The translations under genes and the position numbers were made by a program. The notes beneath the pieces were generated by a model. The model saw only the letters and a list, made by a program, of their open reading frames with translations. It ran no database searches and was not told the DNA's origin. From an uncultured Lachnospiraceae bacterium (GTDB taxonomy: Bacteria; Bacillota; Clostridia; Lachnospirales; Lachnospiraceae): a stretch of DNA of 61,036 nucleotides. Positions 1 through 61,036 of the stretch are shown here, one piece after another. Location: contig CBFFWQ010000011.1 in NCBI GenBank assembly GCA_965645705.1, positions 64,001 to 125,036 of the forward strand, read 5' to 3'. Each line of letters starts with the position of its first letter. Positions within the stretch are counted from its first letter, which is position 1.

Positions 1-3000
1 AGTTTCAATTTATTAATTTTAACTTCCAAATCCATCTTTTCCTTAATTAATGGATTACCAACAGCTAAAGCTTTAATTTCTGCATACGTCAAAGTAGTTT
101 CATCAACATCATCATAGCGGCGAGAAAGTTCACGATTGGTCATAATCTGGCTAATAAACCTCTGCTTTGCTTCAATGATTTGCCAGTTATAACTATCGAA
201 AGTACCTTTTGTTAAATACCTAAAGATGAATACTTTATCACACTCATTACCTCTACGAAGAATACGACCTTCCCTTTGATCTATATCCGAAGGTCTCCAA
301 GGCACATCGAGATGATGGAGAGCCACTAAACGCTTCTGAACATTCATGCCAGCACCCATCTTCTGCGTAGAACCCATCAAAACACGAACCTTACCTGACC
401 TTACATTCTTAAACAATAAAGACTTCTCCTGATCAGTATTAAACTCATGTATAAAAGCAATCTCTTCTGCTGGAATACCTCTGTCTAGCAAAGCATCACG
501 CATAGCGTCATACACATTAAATACCATAGAACGAATGCCACGACTACCAGACTTCGGAACTGAAATATCACAAAAAATCAATTGCGTATACTTCTGCTCC
601 ATAGTAGATCTCCAAATACGATATACCTTATCTGCACAAATAGCAATCTTACAATTTTTATCTTCCCTTGCATCTGGATTAATGATACGAGGGTCTAAAG
701 CTAAAGCTCTACCCTCTGTTGTAATCTTCAACATATTATCTGTCGCTGGATCAATGCCACCACTTCTAATCAATTCAGCACGTTCTACTAATCCATCAAT
801 CATCAGTTTCTGTTGGTCGCTCGCATCTAAAGTAACGTTCTCATACTGACACTCAGGCAAATGCATATCTACATCTTCCAGCAACTCAATATCTGCAACT
901 TCCTTAAAAATACGAATAAGTTCTGGAATATTATAAAATCTGGAAAATCTATTTCGCACCATGTACTTATTACCTTCTGGTGCTAATTCGATTGCTACCG
1001 TTGTTTCACCAAAGGTGGATGCCCAGTCATCAAAATTCAAAAGCCTCAAGGACTCTAAAGTAGAATACTGAAGATACTTCATATTTGAATACATTTCCAC
1101 CATTGAATTGCTAATCGGAGTACCTGTTGCAAATACAATACCATGCTCACCAGTTAAACGATCCATAAAACGACACTTATCATACAAATTCTTTGACTTC
1201 ACAGAAGCACTTGTAGAAACACCTGCAACTCTTCCCATCTTGGTTTTCAATTCCAAATTCTTATAGTAATGACTCTCATCTATAAACAACTTGTCAATAC
1301 CCAACTGCTCAAAAAAGAGCTTTTTAACTGAACCGTTACTTTCATCTGGAGTTGCTAAAAGTTCTTGAAGTTCTTTCTTTAAATCGTCTGTCTGTTGTTC
1401 CAATTTGTCTGATTCATAAACATCGTGAGCATAATCTACTAAATAATTAATAATTTCATTATTTCTCTTAATCTGTTCCCTCAAACACTTAACTTGATAA
1501 TCACTAGACATCACTATTTTCTCGAATTGACTATGTCCGATAATAATAGCATCATAAGAACCACAAATAATCTGCGTACAAAACGCTTGTAATTGCTTTG
1601 CAGTAAAATCTTCTTTTGCAGATACCAAAATATTGGCAGCAGGATAAAGACGAATAAAATCATTACGCCACTGGTCAATCAAATGGTTTGGCACTACAAT
1701 CAAGGACTTTGTACACAAACCAAGCCTTTTTGATTCCATGGCAGCGGCAACCATCTCAAATGTCTTTCCAGCACCTACTTTCTGGGCTAACAATACATTA
1801 TTACCATACAGAATATGTGCAACTGCATTTCTTTGATGTTTCTCTAAAGTAATATTACTGGACATTCCAGGAAACCTTAAATAAGAACCATCATACTGAC
1901 AAGGAATAATAGAATTAAATAACTCATTATAAAGTTGACATAATTCTGTACACCTACCATGATCAGAGAAAATCCATTTAACAAATTCCTCCTTAATTGC
2001 ATCTTGTTTCTGAGCAGCAAGTGCTGTAGCTTCTTTATCTATTACATACTTATCATTCAAATTATCTTTTTTACGGATAGTAATCGCACGCAAATTCAGT
2101 GTAGACTCCAGAATCTGATAAGCATTCGCATCTGGAATACCGTAAGTAACTGTAGTAAATGTATTTCCAACATCCTCACGTTTACCATTAATAAACCATT
2201 CGCTTGTAGACTTTGAGAAATTCGTTTTAATTCTTTGCTGTTCACCTTCTGGTGGATTAATTAAATACTCTGGCGTTCTAAATACTTCTAGCATAAACTG
2301 ATCAATATATTTAGGATCAATCCATGTTGCACCAAGCCTTATATCTATCTCATGAGCACCTAAAGTTTTCGGTATACAAGCCTCAAGACGTTCTACATTA
2401 ATACTAAAACGTTCATCTTTTTCCATAGCCTTTTTAGCTTTTTCTAATTTTTCTCTCACATTTCCACTCAGATACTTATTTGATTGTTCCCAAACTAAAG
2501 TAACTGGATTGAGGAAAATTTTACCATGAAGCTGTTCTATCAACTGAGATACTTCTATACCTGAAAACATACTCATAAATTCAAGATCAACACCCGCCGT
2601 CTCTGACAAAGACAAAGCTAAAGCTTCCTCCGCTGTTGTCACCTCATTGTAACTAAAGCTATTTAACTTTGTAACTTCAAAGAAATCGGACTTACCAACA
2701 TACTCGCCATCATCATTAAACTTCTCTAAAGCACAAAGACGATAATAACTTGCGTCTTTACTAAATGCCTTTCGAGTTATTTCACTGTTGATATAAGCAC
2801 CATACTCTATATAATAATCATAATTATTAATCAATTCATTTTTGAGAGTCAATAAAGTTTCTTGATCTGCTTCCATCTGTACTGCATAAAGCAATTGATT
2901 TAAAGCATCTCGCACTGGTATAATATTAAATGCAGTTCCTTTTAAAGACAAATCCATACAAGACATATACATACGAGAATTATATCTGTAATACAAATCT

Positions 3001-4256
3001 ATCACACCAGTCTCATCAGTAAATCTTGTGTATGAAAAATTTGGAACATAAAAGAATGCTGGCATCCTATCTAATGCTGCAAAATAATTTATATCATCCG
3101 TATACGGCTCCTCGTACTTAAATTGTATGGAACTAAAGGCTTTATCTAAAGCACTTTCCAAATCTTCACCATCGTATCCACAAAAAACTTCTCCGCTTTC
3201 TTCATCCTTTTGCAACTTGCCGATAACTTGCTCAGGATTACTTTGAAAATACGAATTAATTAAAATACCTTCAAAATCACTTTGCATAAGAGCTTCTGTA
3301 AAATCTTCTATAAAAGCAGAAATCTTAGTCCAAAGTTCTTTACGTATATGAACTCCCAAATCTTTCTGTAAAAATATTAAATCGGAAGTATAATTTGGTC
3401 CAAGATTATCAGCAAACGTATAATCAGGCATTCTAATAGCACCCAATAGTACTGCTCTCTGATTAAGATACTCTAATACCTTACTCGCTTTCGTATCCAT
3501 TACATACGATGGAATAACTAAAGCGAGAATACCTCCTGGGCAAAGCAAATCTAAAGACCTGATAAGGAAATATTCTGGAAGTCTTGATTGCTTTACTCTG
3601 TAGCTAGGGTCAAAAATAAGTTCATCATTAAAAGGAGTTTGCCCTATTACTAAGTCAAAGAAATTATCAGGGTAATAAATATCCTTAAACTCTCCATAAC
3701 TCATCTGAATATTTGTCGTTACACGCATACAAATCTTGTATGCGATCGGATCACACTCTGCTCCATAAAACACACTGTTGCCAAATTCTTTTGGAACATT
3801 GCTAAAAGCTCCTCCAATGCCAACACAAGGATCCAATATATTACCACCATGAAATCCACATTCTACCAATTTCTTGTAAATTAAATCAAATAATTTCACT
3901 GGTGTTCTAAATGAATTGGATACGTGAGCCTTAATTATTTCATACTCTTCTGGATACAAATACTCCTGTAATTGCTTACGGTATTCTTCCCAGTCGGTGT
4001 TATCTTCATCAAAGATTTCCTCTAAACCGCTCCATCCTTCATAAGTCCGTAGGAATGCTCGCTCTTTTTGTAAAGGATCTCGCCCTTCCGTTTCGAGACA
4101 CCGTAGCAGATAAATAATCTGCAAATTATTAGTGTACTTATCAATTTTCATCTGTATCACATCTACTTGCTCAACAGATTGTTCCGCTTCTTCGCTGACT
4201 TCTTGCGTGTCGCTTAAGAAAGCATTCACTTTTTTAGCTTCTAAAATTTCATTCAA
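1..4256 (-). CDS. Partial giant DNA methyltransferase + SF2/SNF2-like helicase fusion; the N-terminal ~1419 aa lie in the window and the C-terminus runs off the window start
   Basis: The minus strand is open from ~4256 to position 1 and no stop-bounded minus ORF is listed here. Translation from 4256 gives LNEILEAKK...DPCVGIGGAF (SAM-binding motif of N6-adenine MTases) and ...GQTPFNDE. Helicase motif I LLAQKVGAGKTFEMVAAA lies near 1740-1800. Helicase motif VI VRVLMGSTQKMGAGMNVQ...LHHLDVPWRPSDIDQREGRILRRG lies near 240-390. The start is TTG at 4256 after AGGTAGGTG, or a downstream ATG. Confidence 0.7.
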   Translation of the reverse strand, partial: MNEILEAKKVNAFLSDTQEVSEEAEQSVEQVDVIQMKIDKYTNNLQIIYLLRCLETEGRDPLQKERAFLRTYEGWSGLEEIFDEDNTDWEEYRKQLQEYLYPEEYEIIKAHVSNSFRTPVKLFDLIYKKLVECGFHGGNILDPCVGIGGAFSNVPKEFGNSVFYGAECDPIAYKICMRVTTNIQMSYGEFKDIYYPDNFFDLVIGQTPFNDELIFDPSYRVKQSRLPEYFLIRSLDLLCPGGILALVIPSYVMDTKASKVLEYLNQRAVLLGAIRMPDYTFADNLGPNYTSDLIFLQKDLGVHIRKELWTKISAFIEDFTEALMQSDFEGILINSYFQSNPEQVIGKLQKDEESGEVFCGYDGEDLESALDKAFSSIQFKYEEPYTDDINYFAALDRMPAFFYVPNFSYTRFTDETGVIDLYYRYNSRMYMSCMDLSLKGTAFNIIPVRDALNQLLYAVQMEADQETLLTLKNELINNYDYYIEYGAYINSEITRKAFSKDASYYRLCALEKFNDDGEYVGKSDFFEVTKLNSFSYNEVTTAEEALALSLSETAGVDLEFMSMFSGIEVSQLIEQLHGKIFLNPVTLVWEQSNKYLSGNVREKLEKAKKAMEKDERFSINVERLEACIPKTLGAHEIDIRLGATWIDPKYIDQFMLEVFRTPEYLINPPEGEQQRIKTNFSKSTSEWFINGKREDVGNTFTTVTYGIPDANAYQILESTLNLRAITIRKKDNLNDKYVIDKEATALAAQKQDAIKEEFVKWIFSDHGRCTELCQLYNELFNSIIPCQYDGSYLRFPGMSSNITLEKHQRNAVAHILYGNNVLLAQKVGAGKTFEMVAAAMESKRLGLCTKSLIVVPNHLIDQWRNDFIRLYPAANILVSAKEDFTAKQLQAFCTQIICGSYDAIIIGHSQFEKIVMSSDYQVKCLREQIKRNNEIINYLVDYAHDVYESDKLEQQTDDLKKELQELLATPDESNGSVKKLFFEQLGIDKLFIDESHYYKNLELKTKMGRVAGVSTSASVKSKNLYDKCRFMDRLTGEHGIVFATGTPISNSMVEMYSNMKYLQYSTLESLRLLNFDDWASTFGETTVAIELAPEGNKYMVRNRFSRFYNIPELIRIFKEVADIELLEDVDMHLPECQYENVTLDASDQQKLMIDGLVERAELIRSGGIDPATDNMLKITTEGRALALDPRIINPDAREDKNCKIAICADKVYRIWRSTMEQKYTQLIFCDISVPKSGSRGIRSMVFNVYDAMRDALLDRGIPAEEIAFIHEFNTDQEKSLLFKNVRSGKVRVLMGSTQKMGAGMNVQKRLVALHHLDVPWRPSDIDQREGRILRRGNECDKVFIFRYLTKGTFDSYNWQIIEAKQRFISQIMTNRELSRRYDDVDETTLTYAEIKALAVGNPLIKEKMDLEVKINKLK

Positions 4257-4554
4257 AATACGCACCTACCTTTCAAAAACAAGGAACTATCAGGATTATA
4301 AACTAAGACACTAAACTACTTCATAAGATGTCACATAAATCACGTACCATAAAGGTGGTATTGCTGTAACAGTTTAGAATCACTAAGCTGACACTACGCA
4401 AAATAGACCTATCCGAGAATCATGATACTTTATTAGTAATTGTTGCAAGCCTTAAATCTACACAACAAAAACTAAACTCTATGACAGAATCCTTGCTTCT
4501 ATATAATGAACTGCAAAAAGCAAAATTCCCTGACAAGTCTAATGCTAATAACAC

Positions 4555-8519: not shown

Positions 8520-9030
8520 GACTATAATTAGTTACATAATTTTTCTTGGTTAGAGTCGTTTTGTCGTAATAAATTTCAATTACTGCTGGAGGACGATTAC
8601 TTAAAGGAAGAAGTTCACCTTCTACAAATACCCAGTCTTCAATAGTAGCAAAAGTGATTCCATTCTGCACGGTAGTTTTTACAGTGCCATGCAATAACAA
8701 ATACCCTGTTGTATTTTCTACAGAAAACTTACATTTATAAAATCTGGTGTAATCATGATCAAATAATGATTTCAAGCAATCTCTATAAGATACTGATTTC
8801 TTCTCCTTTACTTTTATACGCAAAGTATCGTAATAATCTTCCCATTCCGTTGAGCGTACATAACCATCAAAAAACTCTTTCAGAAACCTTGAATCAAAAT
8901 CATTCTTCTGATTAACATAAATAGTTTTAAGTTCTTCAGAAGCCTGAACTAAAGGATCAGACTTAGCCCCCTTTAGCACCATTACAGCACTGAGTATCGA
9001 ATAAACAACAAATCCTACTTCAAATGCCAT
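8491..9030 (-). CDS. Hypothetical membrane-anchored protein
   Basis: 179 aa with an N-terminal hydrophobic helix. Its start lies 28 bp from the left IR of the IS. Confidence 0.5.
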   Translation of the reverse strand: MAFEVGFVVYSILSAVMVLKGAKSDPLVQASEELKTIYVNQKNDFDSRFLKEFFDGYVRSTEWEDYYDTLRIKVKEKKSVSYRDCLKSLFDHDYTRFYKCKFSVENTTGYLLLHGTVKTTVQNGITFATIEDWVFVEGELLPLSNRPPAVIEIYYDKTTLTKKNYVTNYSLAEYHAENY

Positions 9031-9057
9031 AATAATGGAGATGATACGAAAATACGG

Positions 9058-10939
9058 GGCTGTCGCACTAAGAATTAGTGTGTAGCTCCTTTTTTTTGAA
9101 AAAAAAGACTGTCAGACCTAGAAAAAATCTGACATTTTTGTAAAATATAAGTATGCAATTATTAAATATTTTACAAAAAAATTATAACCTAAATCAGAGT
9201 GGATATCAACTAAAACTTCCACTCAATCTTGAAATTTTAATTCCAGAAGATGATTCTGTGCGGTTACTAAGTCAGTTTGTGGAGGCAATGGATTTGACTG
9301 ACTTATATTCTACTTATGAAAGAATAAATTTAGTATCGCCAAGAACACTTCTTAAAATTGTCCTTTACTCTTATATGAATGGGGATTATTCTTCCCGTTC
9401 TATGGAGTTAAACGGTAAAAGAGATATTAATTTTATGTTTCTTTTAGAAGGTATGCCAGCACCTGATCACTCTACTTTTGCACGGTTTCGAAGCATTCAT
9501 TTTGCACCTTGCTCCAAACGTATTCTTGCAGAAATGTCGAATGCACTTTTTGATCTTGGCGAAATTTCTGGAGAAACTGTTTTTATTGATGGCACAAAGA
9601 TCGAAGCTTGTGCAAATAAATACACTTTTGTCTGGAAGAAAGCAGTCACAAAAAATCAAGCAAAACTTTTGATAAAACTGGCTAATTTTGTGGCAGAATG
9701 TGAACAGCTTTATGAAATAAAAATTGTGCATGGAGATACTATAAAAATGAAACACGTTAAGAAACTCCGAAAGAAACTGTATGCTTTAAAACAAAAGGAA
9801 CAGGTTGTTTTTGTTCATGGTATTGGGAAACGAAAAACTCCACTTCAAAAGAGCATAGAAACACTAGAAAACTACTTAGACAGACTCAAAAAATATAATC
9901 AGGAAATTTATATCTGTGGAAAAAGAAACAGCTATTCTAAAACAGATCACGATGCTACTTTCATGCGGATGAAAGAAGATGCTATGGGAAATGGGCAGCT
10001 AAAACCAGCATACAATCTTCAACACGGTGTAGACTCAGAATATATTTCCTGGGTTACGATTGGACCACAACCAACAGACACAACGACACTCATTCCTTTT
10101 TTAAAAGAGGCAGAAGAATATCTGAAATTTAAGTATAAAAATATCACTACGGACGCTGGGTATGAGAGTGAAGAAAACTATCACTTTTTGGAAACAAATG
10201 GACAGCTTTCCTATATCAAACCCACAAACTATGAGAGTTCCAAAACTCGTAAGTATAAAAATGATATTGGAAAAATGGAAACTATGGAGTATGATGCGGA
10301 ATCTGACAGTTATACTTGTAAAAACAACAAAAAACTGATGGTAGACCATATCCAACATTCGAAAACAAAAACAGGCTATCGCAGTGAAAAAACGATTTAC
10401 AAGTGTGAAGACTGCACTGGTTGTCCCTATAAAAAAGATTGCATCAAAGGAAACAACTGGAAAACACCTCTGGAAGAAAGAACCAAAACGCTACAAGTTG
10501 CCAAAACATTTTTGAAATACAGAGAGGAAGACTTCGAACGGATTCGTTCGGAAGAAGGAACTCTTTTTCGAACAAATCGAAGTATTCAAGTAGAAGGGTC
10601 TTTTGGCGATATCAAACAAGATATGCAGTTTCGGAGATATCTAAGCAAAGGGAACTCGAATGTGCTTGCAGAAAGCATCCTACTTGCTATGGCAAGGAAT
10701 CTAAAAAAACTCCATAACAAAATTCAAAAAGGTAACACGGGAATGCATTTATTTCCACTAAAAAGTGCCTAAATTTTGACCTTTTAAAAAATTTTTTTGA
10801 GCCATGGGAGATGGCTTATTAAAGTACGTCTTTTTTGTAAAATATTAACAGAAAATAGGAATTTTTTAAAAGTTATCCTAAAAAAGAGTAAACATAAGGC
10901 TGTTCTTTTACGATTTCTGAATCGTTAAAGCGACAGCCC
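9058..10939 (+). mobile_element. Insertion sequence of the IS1182/IS5 superfamily (~1.9 kb)
   Basis: Terminal inverted repeats GGGCTGTCGC at 9058-9067 and, reverse-complemented, at 10930-10939. It carries a single transposase ORF. It is the only plus-strand gene in the window and contains no copy of the window-wide CTAAAG motif. Confidence 0.75.
9153..10772 (+). CDS. DDE transposase, IS1182-family-like
   Basis: 539 aa. N-terminal motif PDHSTFARFRS (DUF772-type HTH of IS5/IS1182 transposases). C-terminal DDE region with Cys-rich zinc finger CKNNKK...CEDCTGCPYKKDC. Confidence 0.85.
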   Translation: MQLLNILQKNYNLNQSGYQLKLPLNLEILIPEDDSVRLLSQFVEAMDLTDLYSTYERINLVSPRTLLKIVLYSYMNGDYSSRSMELNGKRDINFMFLLEGMPAPDHSTFARFRSIHFAPCSKRILAEMSNALFDLGEISGETVFIDGTKIEACANKYTFVWKKAVTKNQAKLLIKLANFVAECEQLYEIKIVHGDTIKMKHVKKLRKKLYALKQKEQVVFVHGIGKRKTPLQKSIETLENYLDRLKKYNQEIYICGKRNSYSKTDHDATFMRMKEDAMGNGQLKPAYNLQHGVDSEYISWVTIGPQPTDTTTLIPFLKEAEEYLKFKYKNITTDAGYESEENYHFLETNGQLSYIKPTNYESSKTRKYKNDIGKMETMEYDAESDSYTCKNNKKLMVDHIQHSKTKTGYRSEKTIYKCEDCTGCPYKKDCIKGNNWKTPLEERTKTLQVAKTFLKYREEDFERIRSEEGTLFRTNRSIQVEGSFGDIKQDMQFRRYLSKGNSNVLAESILLAMARNLKKLHNKIQKGNTGMHLFPLKSA

Positions 10940-11044
10940 TTCTTACCATTCAATTTAAACCAAACTAAAGGAATGATGATTAGCACTACAAATACAAAAT
11001 CGACTTTCACAACAAACTCAAGAAAATAACGCACAAGCAATCAC

Positions 11045-14013: not shown

Positions 14014-14832
14014 TCAGTCACTGTCAAAAATCTCTTTTTTAATCAAATCCTGCAATGACTCGAAAGATTCTAAATTACCAGGATCTTCATAATCATAAAT
14101 TGCAATTACAACATTACTAAACACTTTTCTATAAGATTTTAAAATACTACCCAGTACCTTAACTATCGTACTTTCTTTATAACCACGCTGCTGAAAATTC
14201 AAGTCATTTAAAACAACAGTATCTATGGAATGCCTACAAGCTACCTTAAAAGCAAGAAGTAATTTCTCTGTCAAATTACTTCTCAAAAATAATTCATCGT
14301 ATTCAATTCCTTTTACACTAGGAGCAGCAATTGTAATCACATCTAACAAAAACCAATGCTGTAAAAATTCAGCATTGAAATCATCCGTCTTTATCTGTAT
14401 CACTTTTGGTGAGTACACTACACTACTTGTTCCATAGACAGGATCTCCTTCTCCATAAAATCGAGTCATTACTTTGGTGCAACTGAGACTTCTATACAAA
14501 TTTGTACTACGGCACAAAGACTCTTCTGTAAAAGGATAACCTAAAGTTACTCCGCCACCAGGAATACTTCTATCGCCACAATTGATAACACAAATTTTAG
14601 AATGCTCATTAGCATTCAATTTTGTAGCTGCATTAAGAATTCTATCATTAGTAAAAATTAATCTTCCGCTTCGTACAGGATCTAAAGATTCCTCGCACTT
14701 ACTATACACAATTGTTTTTTCCACCATATTTCTTGTGAACATCCTAATTTTATTAGGACGTTCTATAACAGCATTCAAGTGCATGAAATCCTGCATTAAC
14801 TTAGCCCTGACACCTTCTTTCATTTCTAACAC
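14014..14832 (-). CDS. Macrodomain protein of the bacterial PARG-like family (DUF2263/TIGR02452-like)
   Basis: Motif ICVINCGDRSIPGGGVTLGYPFTEESLCRSTNLY matches the PARG signature GGG-x6-8-(Q/T)EE of ADP-ribose glycohydrolase macrodomains. Confidence 0.55.
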   Translation of the reverse strand: MLEMKEGVRAKLMQDFMHLNAVIERPNKIRMFTRNMVEKTIVYSKCEESLDPVRSGRLIFTNDRILNAATKLNANEHSKICVINCGDRSIPGGGVTLGYPFTEESLCRSTNLYRSLSCTKVMTRFYGEGDPVYGTSSVVYSPKVIQIKTDDFNAEFLQHWFLLDVITIAAPSVKGIEYDELFLRSNLTEKLLLAFKVACRHSIDTVVLNDLNFQQRGYKESTIVKVLGSILKSYRKVFSNVVIAIYDYEDPGNLESFESLQDLIKKEIFDSD

Positions 14833-22491: not shown

Positions 22492-23202
22492 CTATATCCT
22501 GATGCCATAAAGATCTTGAGCAAAAACTCTAAGGATAGGACTTCTTCTTAATTTAACAAGACTACGATGTACACGAAGTCTTGCTGCATCATACGTAATC
22601 CCAACTCTTTCTGCAATTACAGAAAATTCTACTCCTTCCACAAATCTTGCATACACCATAGCATAATTTTCAGGAGTTAATAATCTGCGTGCCTCTTCCC
22701 AAATCTGATTCTTGTACAATTGGCATTCTATGGCATCTAATTCTTCCATACCACACGACTTCACCACTGAATACTCTGTCTTGAAACAATCATCTATAGG
22801 TAGAATCTTTATCTTAGGTAATTCATCTCGTGCAAAAGTACTCGCTTCTCTCTCTGGTACATGAAATTGGCAAGTTGATTTCATTCTAAAATTATAAACA
22901 TAGCGTTTCATCCAGAACCTAAAGTAAGTAATAAATTTAATTCCTAAACCAAATTTAAAGCGTCTCACTGCACTAACCAATGCTAAATAAGAAACCTGCA
23001 GATAATCCTCATAATCCCTTGCATGATAATCAACTAATAGACCATACTCCTTAATACAATTTACAATAAAACCTAAATTCTGTCTATACAATAAAACAAG
23101 ATCCGTTGCTACTGCACGATTATCACTGGATTGAATTTTCCACACCAATTCAGCATTTTTATCAACGGTTTCCAAATTATTCTTTATCATTCTGACCTCC
23201 AT
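22492..23202 (-). CDS. RNA polymerase sigma-70 family factor
   Basis: Region-2-like YLQVSYLALVSAVRRFKF...FITYFRFWMKRYVYNF and region-4 HTH YAMVYARFVEGVEFSVIAERVGITYDAARLRVHRSLVKLRR. Confidence 0.6.
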   Translation of the reverse strand: MEVRMIKNNLETVDKNAELVWKIQSSDNRAVATDLVLLYRQNLGFIVNCIKEYGLLVDYHARDYEDYLQVSYLALVSAVRRFKFGLGIKFITYFRFWMKRYVYNFRMKSTCQFHVPEREASTFARDELPKIKILPIDDCFKTEYSVVKSCGMEELDAIECQLYKNQIWEEARRLLTPENYAMVYARFVEGVEFSVIAERVGITYDAARLRVHRSLVKLRRSPILRVFAQDLYGIRI

Positions 23203-31799: not shown

Positions 31800-32176
31800 C
31801 TACTTCCTGCCATCTGTACTTCAAAACTTGCACTCAGTATACTGAACATAAATTGACAAAAATTAAATTCTGCAAACTTATTTTCGCAAACAAGATTAAG
31901 AAATTCAAAATGCCTTGAAAATTCTTTTAGTATAAAAAAAGCTGTTGTATTCTGTAACAAAAATTCTTTATAACTCTTTTCAAAAATTTCCACCAAATAA
32001 GTGGAACTATTCTTGTTTTCTGCAATCATAGCCTTTAAAAAAATAGGTGGTTCTAACTCAGGAATTTGAATTAAATTATCTTTATAATTGCCACAAATTT
32101 CTGTAGATACAGCAAAACCTAAAGAATTTTGCTGAGTTGTCGAGAAATAATTTTCCGAATTAAAAATAACAATCAA
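31796..32176 (-). CDS. Hypothetical protein
   Basis: 126-aa ORF. Confidence 0.4.
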   Translation of the reverse strand: MIVIFNSENYFSTTQQNSLGFAVSTEICGNYKDNLIQIPELEPPIFLKAMIAENKNSSTYLVEIFEKSYKEFLLQNTTAFFILKEFSRHFEFLNLVCENKFAEFNFCQFMFSILSASFEVQMAGSR

Positions 32177-32204
32177 CTTCGTCTCCCCCCTTCAAACAGA
32201 ACTA

Positions 32205-32282
32205 AAGAACTGTACTCACGAACCACAAAACTAAAGAGCAAACAACTTACTTGATAGAACTAAAGGCTCGTGAGTACGACTG
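32205..32282 (-). promoter_or_regulatory. Inverted pair GTACTCACGAACC ... GGCTCGTGAGTAC upstream of 31796..32176
   Basis: 13-bp arms about 45 bp apart; three CTAAAG copies between and around the arms. Confidence 0.4.
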
Positions 32283-32342
32283 CTTTGATGGCTTTTGAAA
32301 CACATTAAAAAGATAACTAGAAACTCTATACCATCAAAGTAA

Positions 32343-38114: not shown

Positions 38115-38252
38115 AAACAAATTCTCCTTTCTTGAATGCAATAGAAACTGTACAAAAAATAAATTTATAAATGTAACAAAAATGAACCTTGTTACACCCA
38201 TACAATTAAAATAACCTAAAGCTTGAAAGTACATCAATGCCTACTTCAACTT

Positions 38253-38346: not shown

Positions 38347-39141
38347 CTATTCTAAGAATGAAAATATAGGAAGTGCCTTTGAATTCGTATTTTCATTATT
38401 AGCTTTTGTACTATCTATTAATCCTTCAACAGTTTTTTTATACCAATCCTGTTCAACTTTAAAATATAAAATTAAATCTTCAAAAATTCCCATTTTCTGT
38501 GCTTTATTTATTGCAGTAATATACTGTAATTTATTAGAATCCCTTACAATAAAAGGAATCAAATTATTATTAAGGCACTCACGAAATAAGAGCATCCGTC
38601 CTGTTCTACCATTACCATCTTGAAAAGGATGTATGGCTTCATATAAAGCATGAAACTCAGCTAAGTCATCTAAGGTTTTATTAGAATTTCCATAACGTTC
38701 TAATAATTTTCTCATTGCTGCAGGAACATCTTTTGGTAGTATAGTTTGAATATCATTTACGACATTTGCACGTGTCTTATAATCCCCAATAGCATATCCA
38801 TTAGCTATATCCTCAAAAACCCCTTGTTTCAATATTTTATGAAAGTTCTTAATTAATTCCTCAGATAAGTTATCTTCCAATGTTTTAAGCATAAAATTAA
38901 ATAATGCAAAATGTCCAGATGTTTCTTCAATATCTTTAGCTCGGTAAATGCCATCTGCATAAATAGTTCCTGTACTAAATAAAGAAGCAGTTTGATCCTT
39001 ACTCAACTTGCTACCTTCTATTTTGTTTGAATTATAAGCAAACTCTCTTTGAGTAAAACCGTAAACTCCGCTACGAATTTCATGTTCTTTTTCTTGAATT
39101 AAAGCAGTTAATAACAATTGATTAAAATCATTCATATGCAA
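38347..39141 (-). CDS. fic: Fic-domain AMPylase with an N-terminal inhibitory helix
   Basis: Fic motif HPFQDGNGRTGR. Inhibitory motif S-x-x-x-E-G (SNKIEGS) upstream of the Fic core (class II arrangement). Confidence 0.85.
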   Translation of the reverse strand: MHMNDFNQLLLTALIQEKEHEIRSGVYGFTQREFAYNSNKIEGSKLSKDQTASLFSTGTIYADGIYRAKDIEETSGHFALFNFMLKTLEDNLSEELIKNFHKILKQGVFEDIANGYAIGDYKTRANVVNDIQTILPKDVPAAMRKLLERYGNSNKTLDDLAEFHALYEAIHPFQDGNGRTGRMLLFRECLNNNLIPFIVRDSNKLQYITAINKAQKMGIFEDLILYFKVEQDWYKKTVEGLIDSTKANNENTNSKALPIFSFLE

Positions 39142-39587: not shown

Positions 39588-41192
39588 CTAAAGTGTATAC
39601 AGAGAATCATCACCTTCGCCATACTGTGCTTCCAAAGAAGCAATTGCTTGATCAGCATCCAGTACCTCTTGAAAATCACCGCCCTGCAACGACTCATCAT
39701 AAACAAAACCACAAACATCAAAGAACTTTTTCATTGTGATTCTATACGTAATAGGTCTTGCTCTACGCTTATGAACTTCTATCTGTATTAAGTTCTGCAA
39801 ACGCAAAGTTTCATTCTCACGCAAAATGATACACATATCAGACTCTGCTTCCAAAGTCTGACTTTCTCTCGTTGTTGGTACATCTTTTGGTACATCTTGG
39901 TCACGCTGTAAATAGTACCTTGCTTCGGAGCTAGGGTGTGATGTAACCAAAACACACACTGGATAATTCCTCTTAAAGTTACGCAGACATACTGACAGCT
40001 TATCTATATTTTCTTTCTTTGTACTTCTCGGACCTTCTAATAAAGCAAGTGAATGGTCAACTACCAGTACATCAAACTTTATCCGATTATAATCAGCCAC
40101 CAATTCCTCACCCAAATTGTCATAATGATAAGCTTCTCTCAAATTGATATTTCCACTTTCCATTGTACTCATAATAGACATTCGTATTACCTTACTTACT
40201 TCATCACCATAATCATCTGGATTCTTAACCATATCTGGAGTAATGAATTTTCCATACTCCTGCCATACATAATTCACAATGATTAAAGCCCATACTTGGG
40301 CTTCTGTATTTTCAGAATACATAAACAGTACACGATACCCTGCACGCAACACTCTGACCACTGTATGTATACAAAGCATGGTTTTACCAACACCTGCGGA
40401 TGCTACAATACTATACAGTTTATTTCGCAATAAAGGAGTTTCATCGTCTAGATCTGGAATACCCCATAAACAAACGGGAATAAACGTCATTCTCAAATCC
40501 TCTTGAATCTTCTGAACGTCTGATAAACTTTTAATAGATACTACATTGTTTGCATTATCTATGTCGTCAATACGATTACGAATCTCTATCGAAGCTAAAG
40601 AAGTGTAACGTAGCCAATCTTCGCTACCTCCATAAGTCTCTCTGCCAATTCTTATCTGTCCGACAAGAATCTTGCCTTGCAACTTAACAGTATCTTCTCC
40701 TGCCTTACGAAGAAATGCGGATTTATACAAGGGCATAGAGTTAATGATAGAATCTGATTCCTGAGCTAAAACGAAACAATTATCATACAACTCGATAGTA
40801 CGAGAATAAATAATCTCTGCCGCTTTCTCTCTGACAACACCATTCGATAAATCGGAATCCATAGCCTCGCTATCAAGAAACTCCTTCATACGCACAAAGG
40901 AATTAATTGTCAAATCAAACGCATTATCTTCGACAATCTGTTTTACAATTTCTTTTGTTGCATAAGGCTTGTAATCAACCAAACCTAAGGCAATCTGATT
41001 CATTTGATTTAGTACACTAAGAAGTGTATAGTATTCCATATTAAACTCTTCCAATTTAATATAGCTGAAAACACAATCCATTACTGTTGAAAACATTCCT
41101 GGATTATAATTCTTATGTGGAAGTGCTGCACTAATAAATGTATTTACAACACCCATCAAATACTCGTCCTGTAAAACATTCAAATAGATCAA
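39588..41192 (-). CDS. DnaB-like/RecA-fold ATPase (replicative-helicase C-terminal-domain-like)
   Basis: Walker A SAGVGKTMLCIHTVV...VLFMYSENT; Walker B VLVVDHSLAL; CVLVTSHPS. Confidence 0.5.
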   Translation of the reverse strand: MIYLNVLQDEYLMGVVNTFISAALPHKNYNPGMFSTVMDCVFSYIKLEEFNMEYYTLLSVLNQMNQIALGLVDYKPYATKEIVKQIVEDNAFDLTINSFVRMKEFLDSEAMDSDLSNGVVREKAAEIIYSRTIELYDNCFVLAQESDSIINSMPLYKSAFLRKAGEDTVKLQGKILVGQIRIGRETYGGSEDWLRYTSLASIEIRNRIDDIDNANNVVSIKSLSDVQKIQEDLRMTFIPVCLWGIPDLDDETPLLRNKLYSIVASAGVGKTMLCIHTVVRVLRAGYRVLFMYSENTEAQVWALIIVNYVWQEYGKFITPDMVKNPDDYGDEVSKVIRMSIMSTMESGNINLREAYHYDNLGEELVADYNRIKFDVLVVDHSLALLEGPRSTKKENIDKLSVCLRNFKRNYPVCVLVTSHPSSEARYYLQRDQDVPKDVPTTRESQTLEAESDMCIILRENETLRLQNLIQIEVHKRRARPITYRITMKKFFDVCGFVYDESLQGGDFQEVLDADQAIASLEAQYGEGDDSLYTL

Positions 41193-42538
41193 TCACGACC
41201 ACCACCTATCAATTCATTGGCAACATCTGTAACAGCTGTATACTCCACATTTACAATATCTTTGACTAACTGAGTAAGTGGCAGAATGCTATCTCTAAAA
41301 TACTCTACTTCCTCTGACTCGGCTACCATCATGAAATACACATCTAAAGTTTTCGTATACAGACCACGATAAGCACGACCTACTACCTGATCTACATTAA
41401 TAGTCAATTCGTAAAACAATACATACTCGCAGTCCAAATTTAATGCCTCTTCTACAGAGGTGATTACTACGTCATACTTACCATGTTTATTAAATTCCTT
41501 CATCACGCAATTACGTTCTTTTAAAGACGTATAACCATTAATACAAGCATACTCAATACCTGCCTGCTTCAAAAACGGCAATACAAATTCTCGTACTTCA
41601 TGCATCCTTACATACACAATTCCACGTCTATGCTGATTCTTTTGACTAACAATAAGATTAACCAAGGCTACTACAGAATTAATCGCACCTTGACCTTTAC
41701 AAATTAAAGAACGGTCAACACGTTTTGCACGCTTCTGATGATCTAAAGCTGGCACAATTACAGGAATTCCTCGCACACAGGAATCAAAACCTAAATCTTT
41801 CCTTGTTCTTTGAATAAAAAAACAAGGGTCACAATCGAAACTAATCTCATGACGAGTTAATTGTCTGTTAAGTCTCTCTGGATTAGGATACTTATCAGGA
41901 TCAAGCATACAAGCCAATCGTACAAATTGATCTAAAGAGGATACGATTGGTGTCGCTGTAAGTGCCCACTTATACTCAAAATGATTACACACTCCACGCA
42001 ACATACCTGCTGTACTTGCTTTATGAACATTATTAAGATTGTGGGCTTCGTCAATAATAAGAGCATTAAAATCATTTTTATACTTGAAAATAAGTCCCAT
42101 TAAATCACGATTGCCCAAACACTGATGAGTTAGCATCAATACACTACAACGTAAAAAGTCACCGCTTTCAAACAGAGTTTGTAAACTCTTTTGAGTGGCA
42201 TTACTCGACTCTACCCTCAATCCAGTTAATTTTTCTACATCAGCAGGGGTTTGTGATAACTGGTTATTCTTTACAAACATCAGCACCCTGCTTTCTGGAT
42301 TCAATAAGTAAAGCCATCTTATCAATGCTGACGCAATATAAGTTTTGCCTGTACCAGTTCCATACATACACAATGCAGTTTTGCGTGCCATCATCTTAAC
42401 CACATCTAAAGCCTGCAAAGGGTGAAGTGTTTCTTCATTAACAAAAAGTCCAATAACTTCCTCTAAGTTAACAGCATCTAATAACTCTTTCTCAAACGAA
42501 GTTAATGACCACTGGCTTACAATTTCCTCATTACTCAC
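41189..42538 (-). CDS. SF2 DEAH-box helicase
   Basis: Motif I YGTGTGKTYIA; motif II LIIDEAHNL; motif VI QVVGRAYRG. Confidence 0.7.
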   Translation of the reverse strand: MSNEEIVSQWSLTSFEKELLDAVNLEEVIGLFVNEETLHPLQALDVVKMMARKTALCMYGTGTGKTYIASALIRWLYLLNPESRVLMFVKNNQLSQTPADVEKLTGLRVESSNATQKSLQTLFESGDFLRCSVLMLTHQCLGNRDLMGLIFKYKNDFNALIIDEAHNLNNVHKASTAGMLRGVCNHFEYKWALTATPIVSSLDQFVRLACMLDPDKYPNPERLNRQLTRHEISFDCDPCFFIQRTRKDLGFDSCVRGIPVIVPALDHQKRAKRVDRSLICKGQGAINSVVALVNLIVSQKNQHRRGIVYVRMHEVREFVLPFLKQAGIEYACINGYTSLKERNCVMKEFNKHGKYDVVITSVEEALNLDCEYVLFYELTINVDQVVGRAYRGLYTKTLDVYFMMVAESEEVEYFRDSILPLTQLVKDIVNVEYTAVTDVANELIGGGRD

Positions 42539-43619: not shown

Positions 43620-44552
43620 CTAAACAAGTTCGTATTTCTGTATAAACAACTTAAGTTCCTTTTCAAAATCTTTCGTAGCATCTTTAGTAATGGCTTTGTC
43701 ATTAGAGGCAAAAAGTTCTAGAATATCTTCTACGCACTCTTGACTATTTGGCAACATACCTTCTACTGAATCAATTAAATCTTTATAACCTGCTTCACTT
43801 AATAGAGTAAAAAATGGATCTGCTAACGATGGATACTTCTCAAAAATAGTAAGTTTTGGTTCATAGCGTTCTACAATACTATGAACGTTCTCAATGACAA
43901 TCTCAACACTATCTTCTAAATAAGATAAAGCTTCATTGACGCACTCATCTAGAACTAGTTCACCTTGCTTAGGACTATCAATAAATGCATTCGATGGTTT
44001 TGCTACACCATCTATGCCATCTTCCGCCTCAGAACTATTCAGAGTGGCGTATGATTTATCAATCTGAAAATCTTTCCACAAGAAACAACCAAGAGTACTA
44101 ATTAACTCTAGCACTTCCTCCTTAAGAATTTCAAAATCTTCCTCACTGATACTGTATGTGGATACTACTATTTCCGCATTATCACAAAATTTCTGTAATA
44201 GAGCCGTATCTGTCATAACCTCTTCACTTTCCTGTACTTCACCATCACTACTGTATAAATTAGAACTTCTATCAATAAAAGCTCTATACATCAATCGAAA
44301 TCTATAAGGTGCAGTAGGACACAACTTATTAATATAAGTAATCACATTAGACGATAATGCAAACTGGCACCCTGCTAAAGAATCCAATAAATCACAATCA
44401 TAAGAATCATCCTGCTCGTATTCTTCCATTAAATTAATAACTTCCATCAGCTTTATCATAATGGTATACGCTTCACAAAAGGTTTGTGAGGAAACTGCCC
44501 TATCACAACCACCTAACGACATATCAACTACATGATTAATCAACTTTGCCAT
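43620..44552 (-). CDS. Hypothetical protein
   Basis: Start moved to MAKLINHV, preceded by GGAGG. Confidence 0.5.
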   Translation of the reverse strand: MAKLINHVVDMSLGGCDRAVSSQTFCEAYTIMIKLMEVINLMEEYEQDDSYDCDLLDSLAGCQFALSSNVITYINKLCPTAPYRFRLMYRAFIDRSSNLYSSDGEVQESEEVMTDTALLQKFCDNAEIVVSTYSISEEDFEILKEEVLELISTLGCFLWKDFQIDKSYATLNSSEAEDGIDGVAKPSNAFIDSPKQGELVLDECVNEALSYLEDSVEIVIENVHSIVERYEPKLTIFEKYPSLADPFFTLLSEAGYKDLIDSVEGMLPNSQECVEDILELFASNDKAITKDATKDFEKELKLFIQKYELV

Positions 44553-44628
44553 CTTTAAAACCCTCCTTAGAATTTTACATACACGATAAATAGCACACAA
44601 TAAATTTACAGTTTACAGACCTAAAGGA

Positions 44629-45750: not shown

Positions 45751-46281
45751 TTAATACAAATAATCAACATCTTCAATAAAATCAAGGCATTCACACTCCT
45801 TTATTTTACTAATACGACCATGACTTACTTCAAAAATCATAATAAACAGACGGTCAGGTTCTACACAATTGGACTCAATACGATACAATACGTACTTATC
45901 TGTAGCCTCTACTACATTAATTATACTCTTGTTTCCATAATACCGTACATACGTATACAACTGTCTATTCTCGTTATCAATCGTAAGACCAGCATAGGTA
46001 TCTTCATCCATAATCTGAGCAAGACGTTTTTGATTTTCTTGTACCTCATCTAAAGAATCGAAGTCATACATCAGCATAACCGCTTCTACACCTAAAGTTC
46101 TCTTCAAGGAAACACTTGCTGAACTCAAAAAAAATACCACAATAGAAATTAATGCAGCAACAAAAACAAGTACACGCAATCCAATCCACACCACGGACAC
46201 AACGGATACTTTAGAATCCGCAGAGAAATCATCATACTCTTCTTCACTCTTTGCCATGCTATCAATCCTTTGCAAAAGCAT
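45751..46281 (-). CDS. Membrane-anchored hypothetical protein
   Basis: TM helix plus a C-terminal domain. Confidence 0.45.
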   Translation of the reverse strand: MLLQRIDSMAKSEEEYDDFSADSKVSVVSVVWIGLRVLVFVAALISIVVFFLSSASVSLKRTLGVEAVMLMYDFDSLDEVQENQKRLAQIMDEDTYAGLTIDNENRQLYTYVRYYGNKSIINVVEATDKYVLYRIESNCVEPDRLFIMIFEVSHGRISKIKECECLDFIEDVDYLY

Positions 46282-46855
46282 TCACTGTTTCTGCTTGTTC
46301 TACAAAATCATCCTCAGATGCAGTCAACCGCTCATCCTTTGGGTTTGTGATACCCATCTTTAACATTTTCAGTGCTAAAGATTGTGGTAATTTCTGTACA
46401 CTGTACTTCAATTCACCTATTTTCTCATGAATAGTGTATTCACCTGAAACGCTATTAATAAGTGCCCGACCTAAAGTAGAGTCTGTAGAAAGAACCCTCT
46501 TCCGTGGATCAGGATCTCTAGTATCACCCTCATAGTCCACACGAAGAATACGTGGGACAAACTTAGGATCAACAGGGGACAACAAATTAATAAGTACAAA
46601 AGAGCCAACTCCTATTCTCGGACCATCATCAGGCGGAATAACTGTTAATGAAGGAGACGAAATTTTATTTCGTAATTCCTTAATACGAAATGACGTTTTA
46701 TCACACGCCATACGAGCTGCCTCATATTCAGCATTCTCAGATAAATCACCTAAAGCACGAGCTTCTTCCTTCTCAACATTCTGTTTTTCTAAAAGTTTCT
46801 CTAATTCGAATAATTCCGCCTTATACTCTTCCAACTGGAAAGATGAAATTTCCAT
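46262..46855 (-). CDS. greA: GreA/GreB-family transcript cleavage factor homolog
   Basis: ARALGDLSENAEYEAAR (E. coli GreA: AREHGDLKENAEYHAAR). C-terminal FKBP-like LSTDSTLGRALINSVSGEYTIH (GreA: VNSPIARGLIGKEEDDVV). Confidence 0.8.
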   Translation of the reverse strand: MEISSFQLEEYKAELFELEKLLEKQNVEKEEARALGDLSENAEYEAARMACDKTSFRIKELRNKISSPSLTVIPPDDGPRIGVGSFVLINLLSPVDPKFVPRILRVDYEGDTRDPDPRKRVLSTDSTLGRALINSVSGEYTIHEKIGELKYSVQKLPQSLALKMLKMGITNPKDERLTASEDDFVEQAETVNAFAKD

Positions 46856-53936: not shown

Positions 53937-54070
53937 GTAACCACCTGCCTTTCAAGAAAGCAATAAACTCTACACTCATACAAGACAATACCCTGATGCC
54001 TGTCTAAAGATGTAACAGGGCATAAATAGAAAACTCCGATACCTATCTAAAGGCATCGGAGTACACAAAT

Positions 54071-56071
54071 TTACAAATTCATGCGATCTCTTGTATTGAA
54101 ATTCTCTTCTATTTCTAACGGGAGGAAAGTTTTAAAAATAGCTTTATCCGAATGCAATCCAGTATCGTACTGAATTGCAAAGCAATTATTATACTTCGTA
54201 GATTCTGGATCAGCAATTGCTTTCAACATACCTTCTATCGGTTTACAGCCAAAATCAGCAGATAAAATCTTAATATCTTCCTCATTCATTTTTCCAATAA
54301 TACGTGTAGTTATATTGGATTTTATCTGAGCCAGTTCCCCATTTCTAAAAATACTAATGGCATTAAATAAAAGAAATACTGATACATTAGAACTACGAGA
54401 ACCTGTTACACGTGAACTGATATAACTAATTAATTTCTCTGATTGCTGACAACGCTGTAATTCCTCATAAAAAGCAAAGGTATGCAATTTCTTACGCTTA
54501 CGAAGTTCCTGCTTTTTACTATCAAGGAACTGCACCATAAATACTTTAAGCGTATCCAAGTTATCCAATTCACCACCAGCATTCTTATTAAAAGAATAAA
54601 TAACTAAAGGAGAATTAAGTATCTCTCCTACTGTAATTTCATTACGAAATAAATATGAATACAAACCCTCTGGTGCAAAATAATTAGCACACCTACTCTT
54701 AATTAAATTACACATCTTATGCTGCTCTTCATTGAAGGAGTTGGAACTCATTAATTCGTCAATAATCTCTAACAAAGCACCATACTTCATTGACCTTGTT
54801 TTATAAAAAGTAGCTGGATTTTCTGCAATCACTCCATTCTTGGAATACAATTTATTAATTGCCAAACGTAATACTGCTTCCAAATCAGTAGGATTACCCT
54901 CTATTTCCATTAAATTAACTATGATACTCATAAGCATAATTGTCCCATTAACAGCTGTATTAAACATATCTAAGCAATTACTCTCATCACAATCTAAGTC
55001 ATCTAAACGAAGAGTATTAACAAAACGAGAGTCTGCCTCATCCATACTGATAACCAATGTATCAACAAATGGTGACAACTTACACCATTCATTTCCTTTC
55101 AAATCTAAAGCGGAAGCATGAACTCCAATACCAATAGCATTAACACATACATTAAATGCGGTATACGTTTTACCACAACCTGTCTTACCGCAAAGCATAA
55201 TGACTTGTGCTGCTGAACTCTCAAAAAAATTAATCATCAAAGGGAGCTTATTTGTCCATTCAATACCGAGCATTAAACCATTACCACCAACTAATCCTTG
55301 TGTTTTATTTGGCATAAATAAACTCAAATTTTGTTCACTCATTAACATTGGATAAGTTTTCTTCATCTCCTGTTGCTTATAAACTGCTGGACAATAATTG
55401 TTAAGATAAGGAGTAAGTTCACCTGTAATATCTCCATAAGCAACTTTGAACTTATCCAGTAAACCATACAGCTCGCCTTCGTACAAATTTAATTCTTCAA
55501 TATCAGGAGCACTTGCTTGCACAAACATATAAGTAAGGAAAAATGCTTGATTGCCAGTAACGCTCTCAAAAATATAATCATAGCTATCCTTATTATCCCT
55601 GATGGCTAGCAAATGTTCTTTGTTAATACTTACTTTACTTCCATTACCGACATTAAACTCTGCACCGAGCATACGTTGGTCGTCTGACAATTGCGTGTAA
55701 ATTTGGGCATAACGATCAAACTGTCTTGTTGCCGAAGTAAGTTGTGTTGTAAATTTTCTACTTCGCACATCAATTCGTACTGGCTTATTATAAGTATGCA
55801 CTATTGTTTTGACTTTGGGGTGCAATTTAAACATTTGGGTACGAATGTGATAAGGGAGATTATTTTCAAAATGTACGGGTACTGCTAGAATAGTCCATAC
55901 TCTTGTAACCCTTTTTCTTGTAAGGAATCTATCAAAAACTGGTTTCAGACCTAAAGAAGTAATCTTCTCTTTTACAATCAAATTACCTTTTGTCAACCAG
56001 TTAGCTATGTACTCTGCATACACGGTTGCTAATAAATTCTTTTCTTTCTTTGCCATGCAACGATGCACCAC
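54071..56071 (-). CDS. P-loop ATPase, VirB4/TrsE-like conjugation ATPase candidate
   Basis: Walker A LCGKTGCGKTY at about residue 300 of 666. It lies immediately upstream of the wall hydrolase, as in conE-cwlT-type arrangements. Confidence 0.4.
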   Translation of the reverse strand: MVHRCMAKKEKNLLATVYAEYIANWLTKGNLIVKEKITSLGLKPVFDRFLTRKRVTRVWTILAVPVHFENNLPYHIRTQMFKLHPKVKTIVHTYNKPVRIDVRSRKFTTQLTSATRQFDRYAQIYTQLSDDQRMLGAEFNVGNGSKVSINKEHLLAIRDNKDSYDYIFESVTGNQAFFLTYMFVQASAPDIEELNLYEGELYGLLDKFKVAYGDITGELTPYLNNYCPAVYKQQEMKKTYPMLMSEQNLSLFMPNKTQGLVGGNGLMLGIEWTNKLPLMINFFESSAAQVIMLCGKTGCGKTYTAFNVCVNAIGIGVHASALDLKGNEWCKLSPFVDTLVISMDEADSRFVNTLRLDDLDCDESNCLDMFNTAVNGTIMLMSIIVNLMEIEGNPTDLEAVLRLAINKLYSKNGVIAENPATFYKTRSMKYGALLEIIDELMSSNSFNEEQHKMCNLIKSRCANYFAPEGLYSYLFRNEITVGEILNSPLVIYSFNKNAGGELDNLDTLKVFMVQFLDSKKQELRKRKKLHTFAFYEELQRCQQSEKLISYISSRVTGSRSSNVSVFLLFNAISIFRNGELAQIKSNITTRIIGKMNEEDIKILSADFGCKPIEGMLKAIADPESTKYNNCFAIQYDTGLHSDKAIFKTFLPLEIEENFNTRDRMNL

Positions 56072-60875: not shown

Positions 60876-61036
60876 CTCTAAACAACACCTACTTTCATCT
60901 AAAGGACTACATGCACAAGTCAGGAACTAAAGGAATGCCCAATCTCATACGCTGAACTATACTAAAGAACGATAAATATTTCCTAAAATTTTATAAAAGA
61001 TATGGAATATCTGAGTTATTTATGGTAAACTATAGG

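Follow-up and report, generated by a model that had tools for sequence, protein, structure and literature searches.

Few sequence signals organise whole bacterial chromosomes; polar words such as Chi, the FtsK-orienting polar sequences (KOPS) and the SpoIIIE recognition sequences (SRS) belong to them. Chi, read by RecBCD or AddAB, is GCTGGTGG in E. coli, AGCGG in B. subtilis and GCGCGTG in L. lactis. In E. coli it is about 4-fold enriched, with a polarity of about 75%. A plasmid-encoded pump can own a private word as well, as the TraB recognition sequences (TRS) of Streptomyces illustrate, which are clustered in the clt locus. Primases start at short template sites, d(CTG) for E. coli DnaG and 5'-GGGTC, TGGTC or GTGTC for T7 gp4. 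For every polar chromosome word known to us, the reader belongs to the host and the host genome shares the word. Could a mobile element possess such a word for itself alone? Here we describe CTTTAG[A/G/T]T (CTTTAGDT), a private, strand-specific DNA word that occurs at near-saturating density and is kept by selection in a plasmid-like element of ~280 kb. The stretch analysed, hereafter the window, is a part of this element and comprises 61,036 nucleotides from an uncultured Lachnospiraceae bacterium (GenBank assembly GCA_965645705.1, contig CBFFWQ010000011.1, positions 64,001 to 125,036). This case differs in that the word is confined to a mobile element, reaches a density that reshapes proteins, is selected in diverged lineages and gives way to a different word in another lineage of the same family.

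How does CTTTAGDT compare with the described signals? Like Chi, it is a short, asymmetric, over-represented word of the G-rich or leading strand that lies in genes and between them, varies among lineages and is neutral in its inverse orientation. It differs in that it is not shared with the probable host, has an unrelated, pyrimidine-rich sequence, and shows far higher enrichment, polarity and saturation. KOPS, SRS and TRS resemble it as polar 7–8-mers that give a replicon a direction, but CTTTAGDT is much denser, not G-rich, evenly spread and absent as an enriched word from the host, and its inverse is not counter-selected. Primase sites offer a likeness in the lagging-strand single-stranded DNA (ssDNA) template, in a specificity set by the CHC2 zinc finger, and in a TTA that follows a four-base stretch able to template the primer, as in T7; known sites, however, have 3–5 bases and are not enriched genome-wide, so that eight bases and a 19-fold excess would be unprecedented. 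The uptake signal sequences (USS) of Pasteurellaceae and the DNA uptake sequences (DUS) of Neisseria are likewise dense (~1 per kb), lie in coding sequence too and distort peptide content. They are found in both orientations over the whole host chromosome, whereas CTTTAGDT is one-stranded and private to an extrachromosomal element. An earlier note on this DNA, which had offered uptake sequences as one possible class, is not borne out on this point, such sequences being bidirectional while 96–98% of the copies here lie on one strand and the signal is not enriched in the probable host. The EcoP15I sites (CAGCAG) of phage T7 also present an asymmetric hexamer in one orientation on a co-directional mobile genome, but reflect avoidance of an orientation at ordinary frequency; here one orientation is enriched and the other stands at expectation. 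The stoperators of cluster A mycobacteriophages are dozens of asymmetric protein-binding sites, spread in one orientation over a mobile genome. In contrast to CTTTAGDT, which has 8 bp, is mostly genic (145/170) and follows the DNA strand, they span 13–14 bp, occupy spacers and are oriented by transcription. The word matches none of the Firmicute examples known to us (AGCGG, GAAGCGG, GCGCGTG, GAGAAGGG, GAAGAAG), and nothing relevant was found in the literature on it as a methylation motif or an over-represented motif.

Exact counting yields 170 copies of the hexamer CTAAAG on the + strand of the window and 18 of CTTTAG, against an expectation of 21 from base composition, 27 from an order-1 and 26 from an order-2 Markov model. 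CTAAAG is by a wide margin the most over-represented hexamer of the window, with z=27.5 at order 1 and still z=10 at the maximal order. The earlier note, working by eye, had estimated some 140 copies against 20–25 expected from composition. Markov-model counting on both strands, the check it proposed, places CTAAAG far above expectation and on one strand only; the over-representation is real and stronger than estimated, and the computed expectation (21; 21–27 across models) agrees with the estimate, as do the 53 copies of the extended form A[ACT]CTAAAGG, put at about 50. Fewer than about 10 reverse complements had been reported, which is too low, although the 18 counted are still at their own expectation of 20–22. 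Nor is the heptamer CTAAAG(G) the best description. The conserved flank lies on the other side (A-N-CTAAAG): an A stands two bases upstream in 155 of the 170 + strand copies, so that the word is longer than the hexamer. The additional G (a C before the word on the coding strand; CTAAAGG, 54 copies vs 3 reverse complements) is a weak preference, seen mainly in spacers.

On the minus strand, which is the coding and G-rich strand, the word thus reads as the 8-mer CTTTAG[A/G/T]T, the N of CTTTAG-N-T being A in 61, G in 41, T in 40 and C in 13 copies. It forms a dispersed array over the entire window (1–61036), with 155 copies on the minus and 4 on the plus strand, a mean spacing of 383 bp, an enrichment of about 19-fold and a polarity of 96–98%. 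All six core positions are required, as single-base variants occur at 0.4–1.2 of expected, none of them strikingly depleted. The copies do not derive from a longer dispersed repeat; their flanks show no conservation beyond the 8-mer. Spacing is near random and slightly more even (coefficient of variation, CV, 0.85 vs 0.99±0.08), and the longest native gap measures 1599 bp. Across the 108 kb of the element that were sampled, the 8-mer is found 244 times on one strand and 9 times on the other, with no strand flip. The minus strand is rich in G and T (+ strand GC skew about −0.27, in nearly every 2-kb bin) and encodes all genes of the window except one insertion sequence (IS).

The hexamer is found in genes (145 copies in 54.6 kb of coding sequence) as well as outside them (25 copies, at a density higher than the genic one). 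The third reading frame of the word is a stop codon. Of the genic copies, 120 are read as xCT-TTA-Gxx, 22 as xxC-TTT-AGx, and 3 include a stop codon. The frame that the earlier note had called nearly universal is therefore dominant, but a second one is in use as well. Spacer copies occupy varied contexts, right after stops, in hairpin loops or ahead of ribosome-binding sites. The spacer positions listed earlier are correct to within 0–13 bases, whereas the statement that almost every spacer holds the word is not: 19 of the 32 spacers longer than 30 nt have at least one copy.

Could all this be a trivial codon effect of Pro-Leu-Asp, an outcome that the earlier note had itself named as fatal to its claim? 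When synonymous codons are shuffled and the proteins kept, 32.4±5.1 genic copies are expected against the 145 present (z=22), and 21.0±4.4 when the order of codons is shuffled (z=28); in neither test does the reverse complement hexamer depart from expectation (18 vs 20–22). These two shuffles and the use of two frames rule out an artefact of codon usage or peptide content. Of the tripeptides [PSTA]-L-[DGV], 100 of 128 (78%) are spelled with the word, where codon usage alone predicts less than 10%; the figure reaches 16/17 for PLD, 11/12 for TLD and 6/6 for PLG, and in compatible contexts of the second frame it is 17/35 (49%). The word-compatible class of tripeptides is itself enriched (158 vs 92±9). 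Pro-Leu-Asp alone occurs 17 times against 2.8 expected, about sixfold and close to the fivefold noted before. The inverse 8-mer is neither depleted nor enriched in genes (4 vs 5.2±2.2 expected, a comparison of low power). The shuffles, the synonymous saturation and the peptide enrichment together indicate that selection acts on the nucleotide word and also pushes protein sequences.

A sister lineage with 87% nucleotide identity carries the same word at the same density (52 vs 1 in 24.8 kb). In a 17-kb alignment, 30 sites are common to both lineages, and 14 and 6 are specific to one or the other. Motif columns diverge by 6.8%, compared to 12.8% in the 10-base flanks (P=6e-4), and 68–83% of the sites are retained, where neutral decay predicts 38%. 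Low divergence of the motif and its high retention argue for purifying selection, with turnover holding the density constant.

Does the word belong to the DNA strand or to the transcript? Five genes of an accessory island (4.1 kb; RecD2, a ferredoxin-like protein, a BlaI-like regulator, a helix-turn-helix (HTH) protein and a small open reading frame) are reverse-oriented. They contain 5 copies on the strand used elsewhere in the element, antisense to the genes (null 1.19, P=0.004), and 1 copy on their own coding strand, where an mRNA signal would give ~10. Although a sample of five genes is small, this favours a signal tied to the DNA strand and not to the transcript.

The single IS of the window (9056–10939, + strand; DDE transposase at 9153–10772, 539 aa, DUF772/DDE_Tnp_1) serves as an internal negative control and as a link to the host. 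As stated in the earlier note, this 1.9-kb IS has no copy of the word, and it accounts for the widest gap of the window (8949–10965). It is a recent insertion, missing from otherwise identical variants of the element. The exact transposase is encoded once more elsewhere on the element, on the 280-kb contig of the element in another NCBI assembly, whose accession is a neighbouring one, and on at least eight contigs of assembly GCA_964018415.1 (loci L017–L025), there beside housekeeping and sporulation genes (SpoIVA and the small acid-soluble spore protein, SASP). Since both share the exact transposase, we take GCA_964018415.1, an AT-rich and strongly skewed assembly of a spore-former, as the probable host. 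Over 130 kb of this genome, each of the two orientations of the 8-mer is present 5 times, and the hexamer 42 times against 53–86 expected, with no excess. A depletion of the word in the host was considered and discarded; it is twofold at order 1 and not significant at higher order (42 vs 53, rank 619/4036). The word is thus neither enriched nor polar in these 130 kb from the chromosome of the probable host, as a host-read word should be, and Chi (AddAB/RexAB) or KOPS/SRS (FtsK/SpoIIIE) in their host-read form, both suggested earlier, are rejected. What stands of the earlier suggestions is a polar, dispersed, element-specific recognition signal, for which the shuffles, the selection seen in the sister lineage, the reverse-oriented genes, the IS and the host counts all speak.

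To which kind of replicon does the word belong? Exact look-up of window proteins leads to metagenomic and NCBI contigs of 172–285 kb, and variants of the element at 98–100% identity have the same word and no IS. A HerA/VirB4-like ATPase of 661 aa (54071–56056, minus strand) marks a wider family of 53 protein clusters at 31–98% identity, on contigs of up to 342 kb, within which the order of core genes is kept. One of these clusters is listed in 558 blocks of the collection. Sources of the family are human-gut metagenomes and genomes or metagenome-assembled genomes (MAGs) of Lachnospiraceae, Oscillospiraceae, Wujia and Clostridium paraputrificum. The element belongs to a so far undescribed family of 150–340-kb elements in Clostridia. 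Near-identity DNA searches of PLSDB and of phage records gave no near match to the window, and a scan of IMG/VR with the DnaB-like protein no close relative; the ATPase had no match in phage records and, in PLSDB, only two distant ones in Bacillus (23% identity). Inocles, giant extrachromosomal elements of the oral cavity, have Streptococcus as host, InoC as marker and a switch of skew and gene orientation at origin and terminus (PMC12340149). Our element recalls them in size, IS load and the possession of a signal peptidase. No orientation switch was seen in 108 kb of it or in a distant relative, and its relatives stem from human-gut samples and from genomes of Clostridia and Lachnospiraceae.

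Is the word a property of the whole family? The next relative (L011, with a 55% identical ATPase) has the bare hexamer in modest, polar excess (20 vs 7, z=5.6), and most other relatives sampled show no comparable word. CTTTAG reaches 3-fold in several relatives, but was not accepted as the same signal, being without T8 there and, in L016, without polarity as well. A different polar heptamer, CGCC[AG]TG, was found in L027 (CANRDC010000001.1, a 229-kb contig of an Oscillospiraceae MAG; 36% ATPase identity), with 28 vs 4 copies dispersed over 22 kb, most of them in one reading frame; after synonymous shuffling 3.5 are expected against 27 (z=14), with 4 inverse. A candidate second polar word in L011, AGAAAGAGA, was dismissed as a tandem purine repeat inside one gene; this repeat, at 14400–14700, lies in a cell-wall hydrolase gene and encodes a low-complexity stretch rich in Lys, Glu and Arg. 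Within this one element family, the polar-word trait is lineage-specific.

A distant relative is the complete plasmid NZ_CP076292.1 of Bacillus velezensis US1 (215,687 bp; loci L034–L038). Nearly all of its annotated genes lie on one strand, and in all 10-kb bins the GC skew lies between +0.26 and +0.40 (~+0.34), with a sign that never changes. Uniform one-way polarisation around the whole circle may hold for the family too, in keeping with the lack of a flip in 108 kb of our element (244 vs 9), and to test for a skew of positions with respect to the origin and terminus, as put forward in the earlier note, is perhaps moot. The plasmid also encodes DnaB-like, CHC2 and Toprim proteins, ATPases of the Tad or type IV secretion system (T4SS) type and an FtsK/SpoIIIE-domain protein. 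Its own polar word, GCTGC[AG]G, is only modest (73 vs 14). Further gene products are a DNA polymerase, a ligase, topoisomerases, a ribonucleotide reductase and a sigma factor.

What might read the word? A signal confined to one strand implies a reader that either tracks DNA unidirectionally or reads one strand as ssDNA. By the usual skew rule, the G/T-rich strand that bears the word is expected to be the template of the lagging strand, the direction of replication being taken from the skew; in a rolling-circle or conjugative mode it would be the displaced or transferred single strand. Our tentative proposal is that the DnaB/primase machinery of the element reads the word as ssDNA and prefers it as a site of priming. 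This machinery would consist of a DnaB-like replicative helicase (39588–41192, minus strand; PF03796, E=2.7e-9) and a split DnaG-type primase, of which a stand-alone CHC2 zinc-finger protein (35429–36094, minus strand; PF01807, E=2.8e-12), corresponding to the DnaG-type template-recognition domain, is the candidate reader. That both are encoded in the window, the zinc finger next to the replication genes, lends support to priming, as do dnaX just outside the window, the DnaB-like, CHC2 and Toprim genes of the Bacillus relative and the uniform polarity of this type of replicon. Firmicute DnaG initiates at d(CTA) or d(TTA), and its template specificity is set by the zinc-binding domain, which is able to act in trans (PMC2978363). 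T3-T4-A5 of the word corresponds to the d(TTA) initiation trinucleotide of Firmicute primases, a match that is a weak test, trinucleotides being common. Synthesis would begin opposite T4 and copy CTTT, so that the primer would start with pppAAAG (on a template such as CTTTAGAT), while G-D-T would furnish additional contacts on the cryptic side. With sites so dense, 280 kb of exposed ssDNA could be converted to duplex fast, in vegetative replication and after transfer. The absence of counter-selection against the inverse word (4 vs 5.2) fits a site that is simply used when present.

Several observations weigh against priming. We know of no DnaG-type primase that needs more than 3–5 template bases, nor of any earlier case in which an 8-mer is required or primase sites are enriched over a genome. 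A comparable word is missing from relatives that share the core genes, and one lineage has a different one; a trait so sporadic would better suit an accessory system than a core function of the replisome. One site per 400 bp and a saturation of 78% would seem to exceed what Okazaki priming apparently needs. The window yielded no catalytic Toprim or RNA-polymerase partner of the CHC2 zinc finger, spacing is but marginally more even than random (CV 0.85 vs 0.99±0.08), and the direction of replication is drawn from skew only.

The main rival of priming is a private Chi-like signal, which we regard as rather unlikely. An element-encoded or element-modified helicase–nuclease would halt degradation at the word on the 3'-ending strand, and element DNA would be spared or repaired while word-free DNA is destroyed. 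The position of the word on the G-rich strand is the orientation of Chi on leading strands; genes and spacers both hold it, its inverse orientation is neutral as for Chi, and the lineage-specific words (CTTTAGDT here, CGCC[AG]TG in L027) recall the variation of Chi among taxa. Its absence from the IS and the lack of enrichment in the host would permit discrimination of self from non-self, and the element has helicases, a NERD nuclease-domain protein, an HRDC protein, a RuvC-like resolvase and RecD2. Yet no gene of AddAB/RecBCD type was seen in ~108 kb of element sequence or in the annotation of the complete B. velezensis plasmid, and a host enzyme is excluded as reader by the host counts. Moreover, ~19-fold enrichment and 96–98% polarity lie far above the values of known Chi sites.

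It is unlikely that the word is the target of a strand-specific DNA modification, for instance N6-adenine methylation of CTTT-A-G by an enzyme of Type IIG, Type III, ISP or BREX-like kind. Such a one-strand mark of 'self' would explain the one-sidedness, and uniform orientation would also immunise the element against enzymes that cut only between head-to-head sites; it would not explain the 19-fold excess, and the inverse word is not depleted. The format is suggestive, an asymmetric hexamer whose sole adenine stands at position 5 and is followed by G, which is the format of Eco57I (CTGAAG), MmeI-family and BREX PglX sites. The sporadic, lineage-specific distribution likewise resembles the variation of restriction-modification specificities, but a fixed adenine is lacking from the top strand of the L027 word CGCC[AG]TG. 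A possible enzyme is a 1609-aa element protein with a weak Eco57I-like/DUF6094 adenine-methylase region and an SNF2 helicase, whose C-terminal 1421 aa are encoded at 3–4265 on the minus strand. This protein, typical of conjugative elements, was rejected as reader: the methylase–SNF2 family is generic to ICEs (integrative and conjugative elements) as well as to conjugative plasmids, and the element L042 has a homologue but no hyper-abundant word.

Quite unlikely, too, is an orienting sequence for a DNA pump of KOPS, SRS or TRS kind, for which an FtsK/SpoIIIE-like protein of the element or a conjugative coupling ATPase would be the reader. Near-complete polarity (244 vs 9) would suit a pump, the window encodes the HerA/VirB4-like ATPase, an FtsK/SpoIIIE-domain protein lies near the homologous Bacillus gene, and the probable host is spore-forming (SpoIVA, SASP). 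On the other hand, inverse copies are not counter-selected (4 vs 5.2, at low power), the density of KOPS and SRS is 10–30 times below that of CTTTAGDT, the FtsK and SpoIIIE of the host are excluded by the lack of enrichment there, and the part of the element that was sampled revealed no FtsK gamma-like domain.

We consider a signal at the level of transcription or RNA very unlikely, be it sigma- or NusG-type pausing, antitermination, stoperator-like sites or the site of a transcript-marking protein. In more than 95% of the genes the word is in sense orientation, many copies in spacers fall in likely 5' untranslated regions, and gene-by-gene selection would account for the near-saturation. The element also encodes its own sigma-70-family factor (22492–23202, minus strand) and a GreA/GreB-N-domain protein (46262–46855, minus strand), the latter a conserved core gene. 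However, the reverse-oriented genes, with 5 copies on the strand of the element (null 1.19, P=0.004) and a single one on the coding strand of the genes themselves, go against a transcript signal, as does the heavy use of both usable reading frames. A promoter element was specifically rejected: sigma-70-like sites occur no more often than by chance, and the word keeps no set distance from −10-like boxes or other promoter-like hexamers. Least likely of all is molecular drive through biased mutation, repair or conversion without a functional signal, which would attain so high a saturation more easily than weak per-site selection. Against it, one-mismatch neighbours are near expectation (0.4–1.2, none strikingly depleted), a drive acting on duplex DNA should enrich both orientations, and sites are conserved between lineages beyond neutral expectation, with gains that balance losses.

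Might the word be one instance of something more general? It is conceivable, and we suggest it with due reserve, that giant, uniformly polarised Firmicute plasmids carry private 'replicon identity' words, lineage-specific and of 7–8 bases (CTTTAGDT here, CGCC[AG]TG in a relative), which stand on one strand at near-saturating density and are read by an element-encoded machine that tracks ssDNA. If so, they would represent a new class of self-recognition signal for extrachromosomal DNA, by which the machine acts on its own DNA and not on that of the host; it could be a primase with an unprecedentedly long site or a private, Chi-like nuclease switch. Identification of the reader would show how a very large plasmid replicates its DNA, protects it or identifies it as its own, and culturable relatives are at hand in a Clostridium paraputrificum isolate, a Lachnospiraceae isolate and Bacillus velezensis. 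CTTTAGDT can also be used as a computational marker that assigns metagenomic contigs to the element.

The remaining gene products of the window, named like the others by Pfam and PHROG scans, include an SNF2/ResIII-type helicase (41189–42538, minus strand), which adjoins the DnaB-like gene and belongs to the conserved core of the family, an Hsp70-like protein (36267–38237) and a type I signal peptidase (31281–31799). In addition to the RuvC-like resolvase and the NERD and HRDC proteins there are a Fic protein, a giant NlpC/P60 protein and, by a pre-computed Pfam hit, a PARG-like protein; dnaX lies just outside the window. No phage structural genes were found among the ten proteins scanned against PHROGs, and no known RNA families or tRNAs in the window.

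The accessory island of the element (CAXHPK010000005.1, 280,482 bp; L043 1–19500) has mixed gene orientation and weak skew, and the word keeps to its usual strand throughout. It contains RecD2, two IS elements, Rrf2, BlaI-like and HTH regulators, a second PARG-like gene, a DprA fragment, Uma2, TerD, NAPRTase and a ferredoxin-like gene. Within the window, the Fic gene (38347–39141, GC 0.29) and the gene of a 326-aa protein (43620–44600) have compatible tripeptides and no copy of the word; they may be later acquisitions than their neighbours.

Two spacers stand out on direct reading. At 54004–54054 (minus strand) lie two copies of the word, of which the upstream one (54047–54054) is in the loop of a hairpin (ACTCCGAT...ATCGGAGT) followed by a T-run. 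The spacer 32192–32342, upstream of the gene at 31796–32176, has three copies of CTTTAGTT at 29-bp spacing (32202–32267, minus strand), the first two flanked by an inverted repeat of 10–12 bp (GTACTCACGAGC / GTTCGTGAGTAC). With its triple word and inverted repeat, this spacer could be an iteron-like or regulatory site.

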